From Minisyncoccota bacterium (GTDB taxonomy: Bacteria > Patescibacteriota > Minisyncoccia > Phycocordibacterales > UBA1006), in NCBI GenBank assembly GCA_036405175.1, contig DASWYC010000002.1, positions 537,080-601,079 of the forward strand: 64,000 bases of DNA, read 5' to 3'. Positions 68 through 46,266 of this stretch are shown one piece after another; position 1 is the first letter of the stretch, and every line of letters begins with the position of its first letter. Made by a program: the position numbers and the translations under genes. Below the pieces are notes generated by a model. That model was given only the letters and a program-made list of their open reading frames with translations. It was not told the DNA's origin and searched no databases.

Positions 68-3000
68 CTAATAACTTAGATTATAGGCACTTGGATCATA
101 ATCCGCAGTTGATTTTGTGGTATAGAACTTAGAACATGAGAATCCTTGGAAATATTTATTTGGTGGATTACGTGCAGTATCTAATTTCCCGCTAATACCA
201 AACTTATCAGTTAGTGCACCCTTAAGATCTCTAAAAGCACCGACAAGGTCACCCAACCCTAACGCATTAGCGGCAACCTGCTGAATACCCATCACGGTGT
301 CAAATATCTTATCAGCCTTTGCAGCCCTTACAAGTTCTGGTGGCGGCTTACCGAATTCAAGACCTGCAATATATGGTGCATTATCACCTGCAAGATACCC
401 AGCAACACAGTAGTAAGATATTTCATTATCTTGTGCCTCATTTGCAATTTGAGTCAAAGAAGCAATATTTAACCCCATAATAGCTTTATCAATAGCACTA
501 TTATCAGTAGTGCGCACTGTTTGATATTCCCCACCAGATGTATAATTTCCAGATACACCTGTAGTTATTGTTCCGCCAGAACCATTAGCATCTCTTATAC
601 CTTCACAATATTGCTGGTTGGCATAAACCTCATTACCATTCCCGTCTGTTTCTTTTCTAAAGAAATAAGCTTTATCGATAGGAGTTGTCTCATCTGCCCA
701 TGGCCAAGGCGCCCCTGCAATAAGCGATCTGCAGGCTTTAGCGTCATTACTTTCAGGGTTTGCTGGAGAAATGGCTGATGCATTGATTGATATTGAATCT
801 TTTGACCCATCAATGAGCTTGCTATCTACCTTGATAGTACCCGCCTTTAATAACTCATTATAATACACCTGAGCATCAATTCCATTTCTTCCATTTCCAT
901 AATATGATTCTAGATACGCAATTTGCTCAGGACTAAACGTAACGTCAGGGATCTCTCCTGGGAGTGGGGCGGTTGGATCAAAATTCAAACGTTTAAGAAT
1001 TTCACGTGAATAGAGTTCTGAGTTTGGATTAATTGCTTTCCATGCTGAATAAATAAGTGCTGACTCGCGACTATTAAGATAGTTGTTCGCATTACGCTGC
1101 TTAATACAATCTTTGTTTGCCTTAATAACACTTGTTAGAAAGTCGAGTGTTTCAGCAAGCTGAGCTTCTGATTCTGCATTAGTTTCTGTATACCCAGAAT
1201 AGGACTCAAGCTCTTGAAGAAGTTTTAAGGTGTATCGAGGACCAATAGGTAAATTAGTTCCTGGCTCAGTACCCTGTTCCCAGATACTCTTAATTTCAAC
1301 CATGCGATCATACACCTTGAGATATCTACTCAACAATCCTTCTGCCTCTTTTTTGCGGGTAAATATGGTATCTGCTTGATCTACAAGACTTTTATACGAT
1401 GATCCACCCCTCACCGACATCATATCGACAGGGTTATTAATTTTCTTTTCTATATATGCGTTAATATCATTAAAACCAGAATCCAGACGTTGTGCATACT
1501 GTTCATAGAGAGGCACTTGGTATGTTCCATCTGCATTTTTTTGAAGTGTTCCACCGCTCGTCTCAGCAATGCGAGCGGTCAAAGCATTTCGTGAAGTAGT
1601 ATATGCTGTTGCAAAGCGACTTTCCCATCCTTTATCTGGACCCGGAATACAGATATCAAGCTTTCTTAGGTATGGAATCGCTTCTCCAATAACACGAGCA
1701 GCAATGTCGAGCTGTTCAATTTGCGTTTTTACAAGAGCAATCTTACTAAAGCCGCAGGTTTGACCAATACTTGCAAGGTCAGCATAGGTTTGTACATTTG
1801 ATGGAGCCAGCTTATACAAATCTCCCAACGTAGCAAAATCACCCGTATTATACTGAACAATATTAGCATTGATTTCATCAATAAATGGCTTAGCCAATCC
1901 AGCCTCTTTGAGACATTTCTCCATTTCTGGTGTCATGGTTGTTTCCAGGTCCTCATCAATAGATTGTCCGCTTAAATAGATCTCATTTGAATCGTATGAT
2001 TCTGGTGCTTCTGCAAGAAGTTTTTTGATTTGCTCTTGGGTAAAGATTTTTGCTCTATCAACCCCCTCCGCAACAGTCTTGCGTGCCCAATTTACTCCAA
2101 GACTAGTACCCTGCTTGGTCAATTCATCTGCAAGGGTTGTCATAGTGCTACTTAAAAGCTCATACCATGTATCAATGTTTTGTGCCTGTTCATTTGGAGT
2201 ATCAGCAGCTTTTTTAAACGCAGACTCTACCAGTGATCCTGGCAATGTAGTTGCATAGACAGCACACTCTTCTGGTTTTGCATATCGTGCATTTGCTATA
2301 GCATTTGGATCAGCAGCATCTTCATTGCTTGGTATTATCGCAAAATTTGGTTTTTGTTGTCCATTTTCATCATATGTATAATCTCCTATTTTAATATCTT
2401 TATTTTTCTTTTTTGAAATTAACCTTAAACATTCTTGCTGACCCTGGAATCCATTATTAAGCTGAAGATTTTTATCAACCACCTGCTGATTAGCAACGAT
2501 GGCCTTATTAATAGACTCTCTTGTTGTAAAGTATTCACCAAATAGATTACCTGAAGGCTTACTGAGTACCTGGTATTTTGACCAGAATCCAGTGAGGTTT
2601 TCTTTGCGAGCTTGAGCAGTAGGATTCCCATATCCCACACCTGTCAAGAATTTTGTCCATTTGGTTTTCTCCTGAATATTATTTCTAATGAAGGCATTGA
2701 TCTTATTAGTACTTGGATTGGTTGACTTCCCCGTATACTCAGAAATAAGCCCTAGAAGTATTTTTTTTGTATACGCACTCGCATATTCAGCAGTTGCATA
2801 TTCTTCAAGCTTCTGACGGAAGACTTTAGATTGTGCATTCTGATAGGTTAATTCCAAGTTCTGTATAAAGCTAGGTTTTCCATCAAAGCCAGTATATGCC
2901 CAAGAAACAACAGATTTAAGATTTTTATTGATGAAGCTCTGTGCAAGATTAAAAGCAATTTTATCAAATACTTTCAAGTCCAAAGAATTGCTTTTCTGCA

Positions 3001-5684: not shown

Positions 5685-5809
5685 GGCTTATATGGTTTCT
5701 GAGTAGTCGCGCAGCGGCTGATAGGGAGCGCTATTGCGCAGCTTTGGCGCGACCATATCAGACCGTGAGCGTAGGCTCGGTAGAGGCCGCTACGAAGAAA
5801 CCATATAAG
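5685..5809. repeat. Structured repeat element copy A (long subtype), in the secY-adk spacer, inserted at the centre of palindrome gcttatatggtttct|agaaaccatataagc
   Basis: Shares conserved core with copies at 10043, 18383, 41624 and 45136: agtcgcgcagcggctgata…gcgcgaccatatcagacc.tgagcgtagg.tcggtagaggccgct. Flanked by a 15-bp perfect inverted repeat unique to this copy. Confidence 0.85.
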
Positions 5810-5874
5810 CTCATAATTCTAAATAATAACAAAAACCCCACTCTTTCGAGTAGGATTTTTTAGTTTCAATACAA

Positions 5875-9648: not shown

Positions 9649-9834
9649 CTACCATGATGACTTTCGTACTCCTGGAAGCATTCCTTCGTTCGCGAGTTCG
9701 CGGAAACAAATGCGACAAAGATCGAAATCACGCATGTATCCTCTACCACGTCCACAACGGAAGCAACGACTCTTCTGACGAGTAGAGAACTTTGCCTTCT
9801 TAAGAGAACGTACAAATACTGACGTTTTTGCCAT
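9649..9834 (-). CDS. rpsZ: 30S ribosomal protein S14 type Z (zinc-binding)
   Basis: 61 aa. CxxC…CxxC ([10 protein letters not shown]…CRICFRE) zinc ribbon characteristic of S14 type Z. Confidence 0.85.
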
Positions 9835-10042: not shown

Positions 10043-10167
10043 AACCCTAGCCATGAGAGCAGTCGCGGAAACTGCCGATAGGGAGCGCTGTTGCGTAGCT
10101 TCGGCGCGACCATATCGGACAGTTGAGCGGAGGGCCGGTAGAGCCCGCTGCGATCATGGCCAGGGTT
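10043..10167. repeat. Structured repeat element copy B (long subtype, most diverged), between the rpsZ start and the divergent dsbA-like gene
   Basis: Core is homologous to copies A and E, with compensating changes (ccgata…tatcgg versus ctgata…tatcag). Flanked by near-perfect inverted repeat aaccctagccatga / tcatggccagggtt. Confidence 0.8.
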
Positions 10168-10193
10168 AAATTTGCTCATGATATACTTTCCTC

Positions 10194-10922
10194 ATGAAAG
10201 CACATCATAAGGAAAATACGATTTATACCACCATTTTAATAATAGTCCTTGGAATTATCGCTGTTTTTGCAGTTTCAGCATCAAAAACCCTTGATAGTAT
10301 TAATACCCCCCGAATTGGTAATTGGAGCCTCCTACCGCAGGTTATCAATGTGCCACTTTCAAAGGTTGGCGTGCGCGAAAAAGACCTTGCTCCATGTCTT
10401 GATAATCCAGAAACTCAACAAATTATTGCTCGCGATGCTGAAGAGGCTGGCCCTACCGGAACACCTCTCTTCTATATTTTCTCAAAGGATCACACTTATC
10501 GTATGGTTGGAGCAATTCCTGCAGCCATGCTCACTCAAATGATTGACACCCTTCAAGCTGGTCGTCCTATTGCTACCCCAGCAGAAGCCGAAGGTAATTT
10601 TCAAGAAATTTCTGCCGATGCTCCAGAAATGGCATATCTCAATCTTCGCCCTACCGATGCGCGCTTAAATGCAACACTTACAAACCCATCAGTAACAATC
10701 ATTGAGTACGGCGATCTTTCATGCCCTGCATGTAAATATGCGCACCAAGAACTCAAAAAGGCTCTTTCAAAAGAAACTACTGTGCAGTATATATATCGCC
10801 ATCACCCACTTACCAGCATTCACCCTGACGCACAAAAGCAAGCAGAAGTTGCCGTATGTGTGCAGCAACTTAAAGGATACAAGGCATTCTGGGACTTTGT
10901 AGATTACACCTACAAACAATAA
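10194..10922 (+). CDS. Membrane-anchored DsbA-like thiol:disulfide oxidoreductase with apparently permuted motif order
   Basis: N-terminal TM helix. The C-terminal half has …VTIIEYGDLSCPACKYAH…HHPL…FWDFVDY (the DsbA CxxC N-subdomain). The N-terminal half has …CLDNPETQQI…GPTGTPLFYIF… (normally the C-terminal DsbA subdomain). Confidence 0.65.
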   Translation: MKAHHKENTIYTTILIIVLGIIAVFAVSASKTLDSINTPRIGNWSLLPQVINVPLSKVGVREKDLAPCLDNPETQQIIARDAEEAGPTGTPLFYIFSKDHTYRMVGAIPAAMLTQMIDTLQAGRPIATPAEAEGNFQEISADAPEMAYLNLRPTDARLNATLTNPSVTIIEYGDLSCPACKYAHQELKKALSKETTVQYIYRHHPLTSIHPDAQKQAEVAVCVQQLKGYKAFWDFVDYTYKQ

Positions 10923-10926
10923 TCAC

Positions 10927-10957
10927 TAAAAAATCCCTCACTAGTGAGGGATTTTTT
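10927..10957. terminator. Bidirectional rho-independent terminator aaaaaatccctc-actagt-gagggatttttt
   Basis: Perfect 12-bp stem flanked by A and T runs. Lies downstream of both the dsbA-like gene (+) and rplE (-). Confidence 0.75.
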
Positions 10958-10973
10958 AGTGTGTCTGCAAATA

Positions 10974-18382: not shown

Positions 18383-18499
18383 AACAAAAACCACTTTGTA
18401 GCAGTCGCGCAGACGGCTGATAATGAGCACGTTGTGCGAATATATCAGACCGCGAGCGTAGGGCCGATAGAGCCCGCTGCGTACAAAGTGGTTTTTGTT
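18383..18499. repeat. Structured repeat element copy C (short subtype), between convergent HIT and pgk genes, inserted at the centre of the 36-bp palindrome aacaaaaaccactttgta|tacaaagtggtttttgtt
   Basis: Conserved core gcagtcgcgcagacggctgataatgagcacgttgtgcgaatatatcagaccgcgagcgtagggccgatagagcccgctgcg. Flanked by a perfect 18-bp inverted repeat that resembles a split bidirectional terminator. Confidence 0.85.
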
Positions 18500-41623: not shown

Positions 41624-41734
41624 AAATCTCTATCATCAAGCAGTCGCGCAGCGGCTGATAATGAGCACATGGTGCGAATATATCAGACCGCGAGCGTAGG
41701 CCCGGTAGAGGCCGCTGCGCGATGATAGAGATTT
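41624..41734. repeat. Structured repeat element copy D (short subtype), downstream of the pnp terminator, at the centre of palindrome aaatctctatcatc|gatgatagagattt
   Basis: Core cagtcgcgcagcggctgataatgagcacatggtgcgaatatatcagaccgcgagcgtaggcccggtagaggccgctgcgc. Inner 10-bp stem gcgcagcggc/gccgctgcgc. Outer stem 14 bp. Confidence 0.85.
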
Positions 41735-41757
41735 AATATGAGCTATAATAAAACCAC

Positions 41758-45135: not shown

Positions 45136-45254
45136 AAACACTTCTTGTGGAGCAGTCGCGCAGTGGCTGATACGAGCGCCATTGCGTAGCTTTGGCGCGA
45201 CCATATCAGACCACGAGCGTAGGGTCGTAGCCCGCTGCGACACAAGAAGTGTTT
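45136..45254. repeat. Structured repeat element copy E (long subtype), between convergent comM-like and M23 peptidase genes, at the centre of palindrome aaacacttcttgtg|cacaagaagtgttt
   Basis: Core gagcagtcgcgcagtggctgatacgagcgccattgcgtagctttggcgcgaccatatcagaccacgagcgtagggtcgtagcccgctgcga. Outer stem is a perfect 14-bp inverted repeat. Confidence 0.85.
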
Positions 45255-45255
45255 A

Positions 45256-46266
45256 TTAACACGCTGTCATCCCAAATGATACACATGGAATTGGTGGACC
45301 GTTACGAATTTCAAAATGAAGGTGAGGACCAGTTGATTGCCCGGTATTTCCTGATTCTCCAATCACCGTTCCTTGTGAAACATACTCACCAACTGATACA
45401 AAGTTTTTTGAATGGTGTGCATACAATGTCTGTGATCCGTTTGCGTGCTCAATAACAATATAGGTTCCATATCCACCACCCCATCCACCTGATGAAGCAA
45501 TGATTACCGTTCCACTCATTGAGGCAACTACAGGAGTTCCAACAGGTGCGCCAATATCGATTGCGCGGAAACGTCCATGATATCCTTGTGTTTTTACTCC
45601 TTTACCAGCAAGCGGATGTTTATACGATGAACTTCCAGCGCCAGAGCTACTTGTTGCTTTTTCTTTCTTAGCAATCTTTTCAAGCACTTTTGGTGTTTGT
45701 TTTGGCTTTACGGGTGTTGCAACCACAAGAGGTTCTGCTCCTGGAACAATGATTTTATCGCCAACCTTAATCGTTCCTTCACCGTCAATACTGTTAAAAT
45801 CACGAATTTCAGATTCTTGTGCTTTATATAATTGTGCAATTTTAGAAATAGTTTCTCCTGATTTCACGACGTGGGTCACTCCATCAACTGGCAAAATTAC
45901 CAATTGCTGCCCAACTTTAAGTGCATCTTTAGCATTTAAACCATTTTGCCATCGAATAGTGTTTACGGTTACGCCAAATTTCTGTGAAAGAGAAGAAAGA
46001 GTATCGCCAGTTTGAACCGTATAGGTGGTAATATCTCCGTATTCTTCATCATCAGGATCAACAATTCCTTCTTCAGAAATTGATTCAAATCCGCGAGAAC
46101 TCAAAATGAGTGGCATCTCGGTTGGTGTTGGCATGGTATCTGCCGTTAAACTTTGTTTTGAAAGTAAATCAACGTGATCATTCACCACAGCATCTTGAGC
46201 CTGTGCCTTACTTGAATGAATTAAAATACTGATTCCAGCAAGCAATAAACACCCCACCCCAAGCAC
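45256..46266 (-). CDS. Secreted M23-family metallopeptidase with two LysM domains
   Basis: Signal peptide. LysM segments (…YTVQTGDTLSSLSQKFGVTVNTIRWQN…; …HVVKSGETISKIAQLYKAQESEIRDFN…). M23 core …HLHFEI… with HxxxD/HxH pattern. Confidence 0.8.
   Translation of the reverse strand: MLGVGCLLLAGISILIHSSKAQAQDAVVNDHVDLLSKQSLTADTMPTPTEMPLILSSRGFESISEEGIVDPDDEEYGDITTYTVQTGDTLSSLSQKFGVTVNTIRWQNGLNAKDALKVGQQLVILPVDGVTHVVKSGETISKIAQLYKAQESEIRDFNSIDGEGTIKVGDKIIVPGAEPLVVATPVKPKQTPKVLEKIAKKEKATSSSGAGSSSYKHPLAGKGVKTQGYHGRFRAIDIGAPVGTPVVASMSGTVIIASSGGWGGGYGTYIVIEHANGSQTLYAHHSKNFVSVGEYVSQGTVIGESGNTGQSTGPHLHFEIRNGPPIPCVSFGMTAC

Follow-up and report, generated by a model that had tools for sequence, protein, structure and literature searches.

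The window analyzed here, a 64,000-nucleotide stretch of contig DASWYC010000002.1 from a Minisyncoccota bacterium (assembly GCA_036405175.1), carries on its forward strand, between 10194 and 10922, an open reading frame encoding a DsbA-like protein. An earlier note, made from the letters alone, had taken this protein for a circular permutant whose C-terminal half is the start of a DsbA domain and whose N-terminal half is its end; the frame and the peptides quoted in that note are present exactly as given. The gene is located antisense inside a minus-strand ribosomal protein (spc-type) operon, between rpsN (S14, 9649-9834) and rplE (L5, 10974-11540). In the predicted model and in the sequence, its product opens with a hydrophobic helix preceded by Lys and His residues, continues with a half carrying a Gly-Thr-Pro loop, a linker and a half carrying the active site, and ends 9 residues past an FW motif (Table 1). 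The analyses described below make it very likely that the gene encodes a membrane-tethered extracytoplasmic thiol:disulfide oxidoreductase of the DsbA/BdbD (Thioredoxin_4) type, composed of a single circularly permuted domain and probably functional.

Table 1. Features of the permuted dsbA gene and its immediate flanks, in window coordinates (a, helix; b, strand of the DsbA fold; AF2, AlphaFold2)
Feature	Position	Strand	Basis
Whole gene, circularly permuted DsbA-like protein, 242 amino acids and stop	10194..10922	+	List of open reading frames, sequence, full-length orthologs, ratio of nonsynonymous to synonymous substitutions (dN/dS)
Hydrophobic N-terminal helix, residues 9-31 (IYTTILIIVLGIIAVFAVSAS...), putative signal anchor or signal peptide	10218..10286	+	AF2 helix; similar segment in nearly all family members
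N-terminal half, corresponding to the C-terminal part of a conventional DsbA, residues ~44-121: a4-a6, b4, b5, a7	10323..10556	+	DSBA model, profile matches, predicted secondary structure
Cys68 codon, partner of Cys222 in the putative disulfide	10395..10397	+	Family conservation; aligns with PaDsbA2 Cys157
Gly89-Thr90-Pro91, the (cis-)Pro loop, upstream of CxxC	10458..10466	+	GTP in 78/78 permuted members
Linker, residues 122-165, from the old C-terminus (a7) to the old N-terminus (b1)	10557..10688	+	BLASTP against P0006; length varies in the family
C-terminal half, corresponding to the N-terminal part of a conventional DsbA: b2, active-site helix a1, b3, a2, a3	10689..10919	+	Thioredoxin_4 14-89/165; AF2
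Active site Cys177-Pro-Ala-Cys180	10722..10733	+	Sequence; CxxC invariant
Cys222 codon, 20 residues before the new C-terminus	10857..10859	+	Family conservation; aligns with PaDsbA2 Cys111
Perfect hairpin, A-run on one side and T-run on the other, between the convergent stops of the permuted gene and rplE	10924..10961	.	Terminator scan, sequence
Extended -10-like element TGATATACT, 6 nucleotides upstream of the ATG	10179..10187	+	Sequence; retained in L001

Searching the whole protein against Pfam, we found that residues 166-241 match positions 14-89 of the 165 positions of Thioredoxin_4 (PF13462; E 1.9e-9, 38.4 bits with a gathering cut-off of 23.2) and that residues 168-227 match positions 1-65 of the 191 positions of DSBA (PF01323; 31.3 bits with a cut-off of 25.6). 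Both matches cover the starts of the models; the protein thus carries the opening of the domain in its C-terminal half and stops in mid-model. The N-terminal half alone matched the other end of DSBA weakly (positions 125-189 of 191, E 0.024-0.1), and a de-permuted construct, in which the C-terminal half precedes the N-terminal half, matched in a single stretch (DSBA 1-188 of 191 and Thioredoxin_4 14-145 of 165). Comparison of a family profile built from 32 members with solved DsbA-like chains rendered the N-terminal match significant: profile positions ~45-133 match the C-terminal parts of 3gl5 (2.8e-9), FrnE 5cp1 (3.5e-9) and 3hd5 (7.6e-7). In every solved relative matched in two stretches the order of the stretches was inverted. 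With 4n30, the Pseudomonas aeruginosa DsbA2 (PaDsbA2), profile positions 151-238 correspond to chain residues 43-130 and positions 64-127 to residues 149-215; the gap between these stretches, residues 131-148 of 4N30 (~18 residues), maps to residues ~44-63 of the window protein, indicating that no part of the domain is missing. We judge from these alignments that both partial matches in inverted order are real, beyond chance. The search for inverted partial matches that the earlier note had put forward as a check thus came out as it predicted, and the outcome it had named as fatal to the idea, an N-terminal half unrelated to DsbA, did not occur (profile matches of 3e-9 to 8e-7). None of the Pfam and NCBIfam models searched spans the whole permuted domain in one piece, and no natural structure with the permuted order was present among the solved relatives matched by the family profile.

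The AlphaFold2 model of the window protein, made with a 32-sequence alignment, has a mean predicted local distance difference test score (pLDDT) of 89.1, exceeding 90 over most of residues 50-242, and a predicted template modelling score (pTM) of 0.78. Behind a transmembrane helix at residues 9-31, the N-terminal half is modelled as helices 49-57, 62-69 and 72-85, strands 92-96 and 101-105 and helix 110-121, the linker as one short strand and one short helix, and the C-terminal half as strand 167-173, helix 178-191, strand 197-203 and helices 213-227 and 229-241, with C177-P-A-C180 at the N-terminal start of helix 178-191. The elements run in the order [a4-a6]-b4-b5-a7-linker-b1-b2-a1-b3-[a2-a3] and not in the canonical order b1-b2-a1-b3-[a2-a5]-a6-b4-b5-a7; the helical insertion is complete in the model but split by the new termini, a2-a3 being at 213-241 and a4-a6 at 49-85. 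The same order was predicted for a Komeilibacteria member (P0104), which is 26% identical to the window protein (pLDDT 86.9). The window protein is therefore modelled, with high confidence, as a DsbA topology that is read from helix a4 round to a3 and whose fold closes, a point that the earlier note had wanted such a model to settle. The note's description of a permuted subdomain order holds in that the halves are swapped, with the addition that the break lies inside the helical insertion, in the a3/a4 loop, and not between subdomains of the thioredoxin core. According to the model, the chain would leave its membrane anchor and start in the middle of the helical insertion, running through a4-a5-a6 and b4-b5-a7 with the Thr-Pro loop; a linker of ~45 residues would cross to the former N-terminus, from which b1-b2, CPAC at the start of a1, b3, a2 and a3 would follow, the chain ending in the a3/a4 loop. 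The three-dimensional fold, and hence the CxxC/cis-Pro active site, would be normal, and the new ends would probably be clasped by a structural disulfide between C68 and C222.

DsbA is a classic test protein in experimental circular permutation, and the best structural match of both models is an engineered permutant: searching the Protein Data Bank with Foldseek returned 1UN2, 'circularly permuted CPDSBA_Q100T99', as the sole match with E < 1e-3, and we confirmed that its architecture is E. coli DsbA residues [100-189]-linker-[1-99]. To our knowledge, this protein is the only circular permutant of DsbA opened in the a3/a4 loop; it is reportedly active in vivo and in vitro, with a stability somewhat below that of wild type. 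As far as the papers citing it relate (PMC3281007, PMC13552848), cpDsbA(Q100T99) came from the random circular permutation of E. coli DsbA by Hennecke, Sebbel and Glockshuber (1999). When the profile of the de-permuted family was aligned with the sequence of E. coli DsbA, the natural C-terminus fell at residue ~96 and the junction within 96-100; this alignment has low statistical support and is anchored mainly by the CxxC and Pro-loop motifs. The alignment places the natural break in the same a3/a4 loop of the helical insertion as the engineered cut, within a few residues. Both proteins have their former termini connected and their new ones in this loop, and keep the DsbA fold. However, 1UN2 is man-made from a class-I DsbA parent, with a CPHC active site, Val before the cis-Pro, no second disulfide and a 5-residue GGGTG-type linker, whereas the natural family, only 11-17% identical to it, is of Thioredoxin_4/PaDsbA2-like descent and has a linker of 40-70 residues, a transmembrane anchor and two cysteines, one on each side of the break. 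The resemblance between the two permutations is one of analogy, not of homology.

A closed monomer is not the sole arrangement that such a chain could adopt, as the half-domains might pair between chains by three-dimensional domain swapping, giving an obligate dimer or oligomer resembling a dimeric isomerase (DsbC/ScsC) rather than a monomeric oxidase. A permutant derived from a tandem protein can in principle complement in trans, and the linker is long and variable; yet the AlphaFold2 monomers of two divergent members close intramolecularly, with pLDDT >90 through both halves, and the engineered cpDsbA, whose linker has only 5 residues, matches as a single chain. ScsC and DsbC are found among the weaker structural matches, where coverage is confined to the thioredoxin half; unlike DsbC, DsbG and ScsC, the permutant has no N-terminal dimerisation or trimerisation domain, its N-terminus consisting of the transmembrane helix and a short low-confidence segment. 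We consider domain swapping very unlikely.

To learn whether the gene is intact we relied on its orthologs. The identical protein was called on six contigs. Three further ortholog clusters of 83, 59 and 49% identity, each of 243 amino acids, align with it end to end, all beginning with MK[AP]HHKEN and ending alike at the C-terminus. For the orthologs of 83% and 49% identity and for the L011 copy, longer contigs were read, and in each the gene is again antisense between S14/S8 and L5; L011 (49% identity) was also the single locus found in a scan of GTDB genomes with the alignment of close orthologs. The dN/dS ratio relative to the 83% ortholog (L001) is 0.10, with 0.12 for the transmembrane helix and N-terminal half and 0.08 for the linker and C-terminal half. 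The gene is under purifying selection. Its odd location, antisense inside a ribosomal protein operon and beside a repeated element, and Pfam matches that cover parts of the models only could suggest that a rearranged or tandem DsbA gene has left behind a non-functional remnant, or that a conventional DsbA is hidden by an error of assembly or a frameshift. Given that the sequence was assembled independently six times, that the frame and both ends are kept down to 49% identity in orthologs from independent assemblies and that dN/dS is ~0.10 in both halves, we concluded that frameshift, misassembly and a decaying fragment are excluded, including the assembly error or frameshift that the earlier note had listed as a refuting outcome. 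A tblastn alignment reaching past the stop was nothing but a short low-complexity extension into the terminator region. Furthermore, at least 78 clusters keep the catalytic and structural residues unchanged, and a terminator hairpin follows directly after the stop, leaving a remnant or artefact practically no chance; this explanation is effectively refuted.

The earlier note had also proposed to look for homologs with the same permutation, and these turned out to be numerous. An exhaustive HMMER search with a four-sequence profile yielded 12,107 matches, the classes of which are described here from the best 150 (representatives at 50% clustering). About 100 of these 150 are proteins of more than 300 amino acids (mostly 400-1200), most of them with 2-8 tandem conventional DsbA domains; a second class consists of conventional single-domain proteins that match in two inverted stretches; and 34 proteins of 180-274 amino acids match in one near-full-length stretch, with GTP before CxxC and the C-terminus ~63 residues past CxxC. 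A second search with the family alignment added 46 permuted clusters, and 78 permuted clusters in all pass a length filter of 200-300 amino acids, so that at least 78 share the architecture. The median length of these 78 members is 251 amino acids, and 61 of them end 8-10 residues past the FW motif. The active site is CPFC in 50, CPYC in 24 and CPAC in 4, the last being the clade of the window protein. Invariant positions of the family alignment are C68, G89, T90, P91, C177, P178, C180, R202, H203, P205, H210, C222 and W233. GTP, present in all 78, lies just before strand b4 (residues 92-96), and its place in the sequence and in the order of elements of the AlphaFold2 model marks it as the putative cis-Pro loop; 68-105 residues separate it from CxxC. 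Seven permuted proteins have a named source organism, on which the taxonomic statement rests, and all seven organisms are Patescibacteria (Paceibacterota, 'Pacebacteria', Komeilibacteria, Moraniibacteriota and 'Patescibacteria group'). The annotations of these seven read 'thioredoxin domain-containing', 'hypothetical' or 'protein-disulfide isomerase' only. Three permuted members (P0184, P0206 and P0221), which have the N-terminus KYKTHWHSFWFGF in common, carry a single-cysteine active site, CPYS or CPFS, while the rest is conserved; in these three, a simple oxidase role is impossible.

The closest solved sequence relative of the family is PaDsbA2 (4N30; E 1.1e-28). The family shares with PaDsbA2 and the alpha-DsbA 'subgroup 2' (e.g. 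Wolbachia alpha-DsbA1, 3F4R) the CP[FYA]C active site, Thr before the cis-Pro, the RH.PL motif and an extra Cys pair in the helical domain. It differs from them in that their linear order is conventional, whereas the permutant is cut at the equivalent of the PaDsbA2 coil 131-151 and its old ends are re-joined via the linker. The protein is thus a homologous member of the DsbA/Thioredoxin_4 superfamily, of the PaDsbA2-like branch, that fails one defining feature, the linear order of elements. The profile alignment pairs C222 and C68 of the window protein with Cys111 and Cys157, respectively, of PaDsbA2. The structure of the latter, determined at 1.3 Å, shows a C111-C157 disulfide that connects two helices within the helical domain, at a distance of ~20 Å from the active site, and a coil formed by residues 131-151, which lie between the two cysteines; mutation of C111/C157 shifts the redox potential from -67.5 to -118 mV (PMC3870256). 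As the permutant is cut in the equivalent of this coil, the disulfide, if formed, would fasten the last part of the chain, at a point 20 residues before the C-terminus, to its N-terminal segment, and we infer that C68-C222 probably bridges the new termini. The Cys pair was present in 77 of the 78 permuted members and also in all 70 nearest conventional relatives; the pair is thus no special adaptation of the permutants but rather a pre-adaptation, which they inherited from the PaDsbA2-like parent subfamily.

The earlier note had suggested that the permutation came about by tandem duplication followed by trimming of the ends, and the tandem-DsbA proteins fit this suggestion. In one of them (P0006), residues 260-447 are matched without interruption by residues 59-240 of the window protein (BLASTP, 33% identity, E 3e-20); this part of P0006 extends from the latter half of one domain across the inter-domain linker and through the first half of its successor. 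Many other tandem-DsbA proteins align contiguously across the permutant in the same way. The domains are of the same type, i.e. the permutant corresponds to the second half of domain n, the linker and the first half of domain n+1, but the tandem proteins are arrays of conventional CxxC-first domains and not permutants. Their layout is a transmembrane helix followed by (CxxC...GTP) repeats, the C-terminus lying ~30 residues past the last GTP. Those examined (P0006-P0154) are membrane-anchored, with 2-8 domains and up to ~1200 amino acids, 112-125 residues or so between CxxC and GTP and a repeat unit of ~200; the only organism name among the tandem-DsbA matches is 'uncultured archaeon'. A tandem DsbA of two domains is the most likely ancestor of the permutant. 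Two changes would have sufficed: an in-frame deletion following the transmembrane anchor, by which domain 1 lost its first half, and a stop placed after helix a3 of domain 2, which set the new C-terminus. The constant end point of the family fits common descent or a strong structural constraint. In one protein of 348 amino acids (P0115), a transmembrane helix and a complete domain of conventional order are followed by a linker and then by the opening half of another domain, the chain stopping 43 residues past its second CxxC. Either P0115 represents an intermediate on the way to permutation, or its gene was truncated where a contig ends.

Regarding function, the hydrophobic N-terminal helix, the intact CxxC and Thr-Pro motifs and the kinship with the strongly oxidising PaDsbA2 argue for a thiol:disulfide oxidoreductase at the cell surface. 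Bacillus subtilis BdbD and the membrane-anchored Thioredoxin_4 proteins, whose partners are BdbC or VKOR, have the conventional order; in the permutant, by contrast, the anchor leads into the helical insertion and not into b1. The locus of the Komeilibacteria relative P0104 has the order permuted DsbA, conventional DsbA, VKOR, linking the family to a quinone-dependent disulfide-forming pathway. The protein would likely oxidise, and possibly shuffle, the cysteines of exported proteins and be re-oxidised by a VKOR-type quinone reductase. An oxidase role in partnership with VKOR is the most likely reading, one that we favor by a modest measure. Its main functional rival is a folded permuted DsbA that is not a general oxidase but a specialised reductase or isomerase, a redox sensor (CcmG/ScsC-like) or an enzyme served by a partner other than VKOR/DsbB. 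PaDsbA2, the closest solved relative, oxidises very strongly and has the same Thr-Pro loop and extra disulfide, and VKOR linkage is seen in one clade, both of which speak for the oxidase; on the side of the rival are the members with CPxS sites, the rarity of CPAC, the lack of VKOR in the window, a DsbD_2-type membrane protein ~5 kb from the permuted gene of a relative (L007), and the Komeilibacteria locus itself, where a conventional DsbA already stands beside VKOR and the permuted paralogue may have a different job. Such a role is unlikely, although less so than domain swapping.

Several observations weigh against a permuted, VKOR-dependent oxidase of single origin, in addition to the low support of the alignment with E. 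coli DsbA. The family is known here from sequences and predicted models alone, and the proximity of C68 to C222 and of C177 to P91 is taken from homology. A tblastn search with the relative's VKOR and conventional DsbA detected no VKOR, DsbB or second DsbA in the 64-kb window, and the loci of a Moraniibacteriota-like clade likewise lack an adjacent VKOR. The CPAC dipeptide in the clade of the window protein (4 of 78) is unusual, and the redox character could differ. Finally, a neighbour-joining tree of de-permuted and conventional sequences (distances, 100 bootstraps) did not recover the permutants as one clade; the largest pure permuted clade held ~43 of the 78, with distances partly saturated, and a single origin and several origins are both compatible with the tree.

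The hairpin that follows the stop of the permuted gene looks like a bidirectional terminator serving both convergent genes. On the minus strand, a promoter TTGACA-17-TAGTAT with a TG motif (10017-9989) lies upstream of rpsN; it falls in a block that, unlike most of the intergenic sequence, is still conserved in the 49% ortholog. From the hairpin and the conserved rpsN promoter, the insertion appears to split the spc-type operon into two transcription units, an interrupted arrangement that is kept in lineages down to 49% protein identity. Upstream of the permuted gene itself, a scan for -35/-10 promoters did not call the TGATATACT element. In a further locus (L004), TGTTAAAAT stands at the same distance before the ATG as TGATATACT, and the orthologs keep this spacing; there is no Shine-Dalgarno sequence at 10179-10196. 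This suggests a leaderless or near-leaderless mRNA for the permuted gene. Other permuted genes have different neighbours: conserved in the Moraniibacteriota-like clade (L007, L008, L012-L015), a divergently transcribed gene for an FAD/NAD-binding (ferredoxin-reductase-like) protein of 234-237 amino acids lies upstream and DUF4446 and infB downstream, and in L007 the membrane protein ~5 kb away is of the DsbD_2/HMA kind and accompanied by a MerR regulator.

Directly upstream of the permuted dsbA gene lies one copy (10045-10170) of a dispersed, GC-rich and strongly structured element of ~110 nucleotides, which has five intergenic copies in the window, all on the + strand (the others at 5690-5808, 18388-18499, 41627-41736 and 45139-45256). 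Its RNA folds with -64.8 kcal/mol (z -5.6), compensatory changes are found among the copies in 13 of 33 consensus pairs, and G-U pairs favour the + strand. L001 carries the element at 1362-1485 (+) and 5712-5831 (-); at this 83% ortholog locus the copy upstream of dsbA is inverted and the adk-secY copy keeps its orientation, and upstream of dsbA in the 49% orthologs the element is absent. A search of the upstream intergenic region, including the element, against Rfam returned nothing at gathering thresholds or at E up to 1. The element could be a repeat resembling repetitive extragenic palindromic sequences or miniature inverted-repeat transposable elements (REP/MITE-like), or a multi-copy small RNA.

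The literature that we searched contains engineered cpDsbA work and papers on the detection of permutations, and no natural permuted DsbA or thioredoxin-fold oxidoreductase; coverage of this literature was incomplete, and the novelty of the family is accordingly provisional. It is conceivable, if rather improbable, that the permutation is adaptive and not neutral, i.e. that the permutants form a distinct class of Patescibacteria cell-surface oxidoreductases with a different membrane orientation and set of partners or substrates, fixed repeatedly from tandem precursors at one tolerated loop, the disulfide acting as a covalent clasp and a redox switch for the integrity of the fold. On this reading, the membrane anchor would join the domain at the helical insertion, and the half with the active site would emerge from the translocon last, which could set the class apart in function.

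No established concept is overturned by a permuted DsbA, but what the window contains is a member of a large Patescibacteria family and not a one-off. Across this family, nature appears to have made the engineers' cut in the a3/a4 loop and to have kept it under purifying selection, and a pre-existing disulfide may stabilise the new termini. The tandem-domain DsbAs, abundant among the metagenomic matches, are the precursor form predicted by duplication followed by trimming and would make the family a clean natural case for the origin of permutations. Matches to half the length of Pfam models and generic annotations indicate that linear profile methods under-describe permuted proteins. The family also allows a test of whether vectorial folding, in the order given by the translocon, matters for oxidoreductases, and it adds to the sparse knowledge of oxidative protein folding on the surface of ultra-small episymbiotic bacteria.

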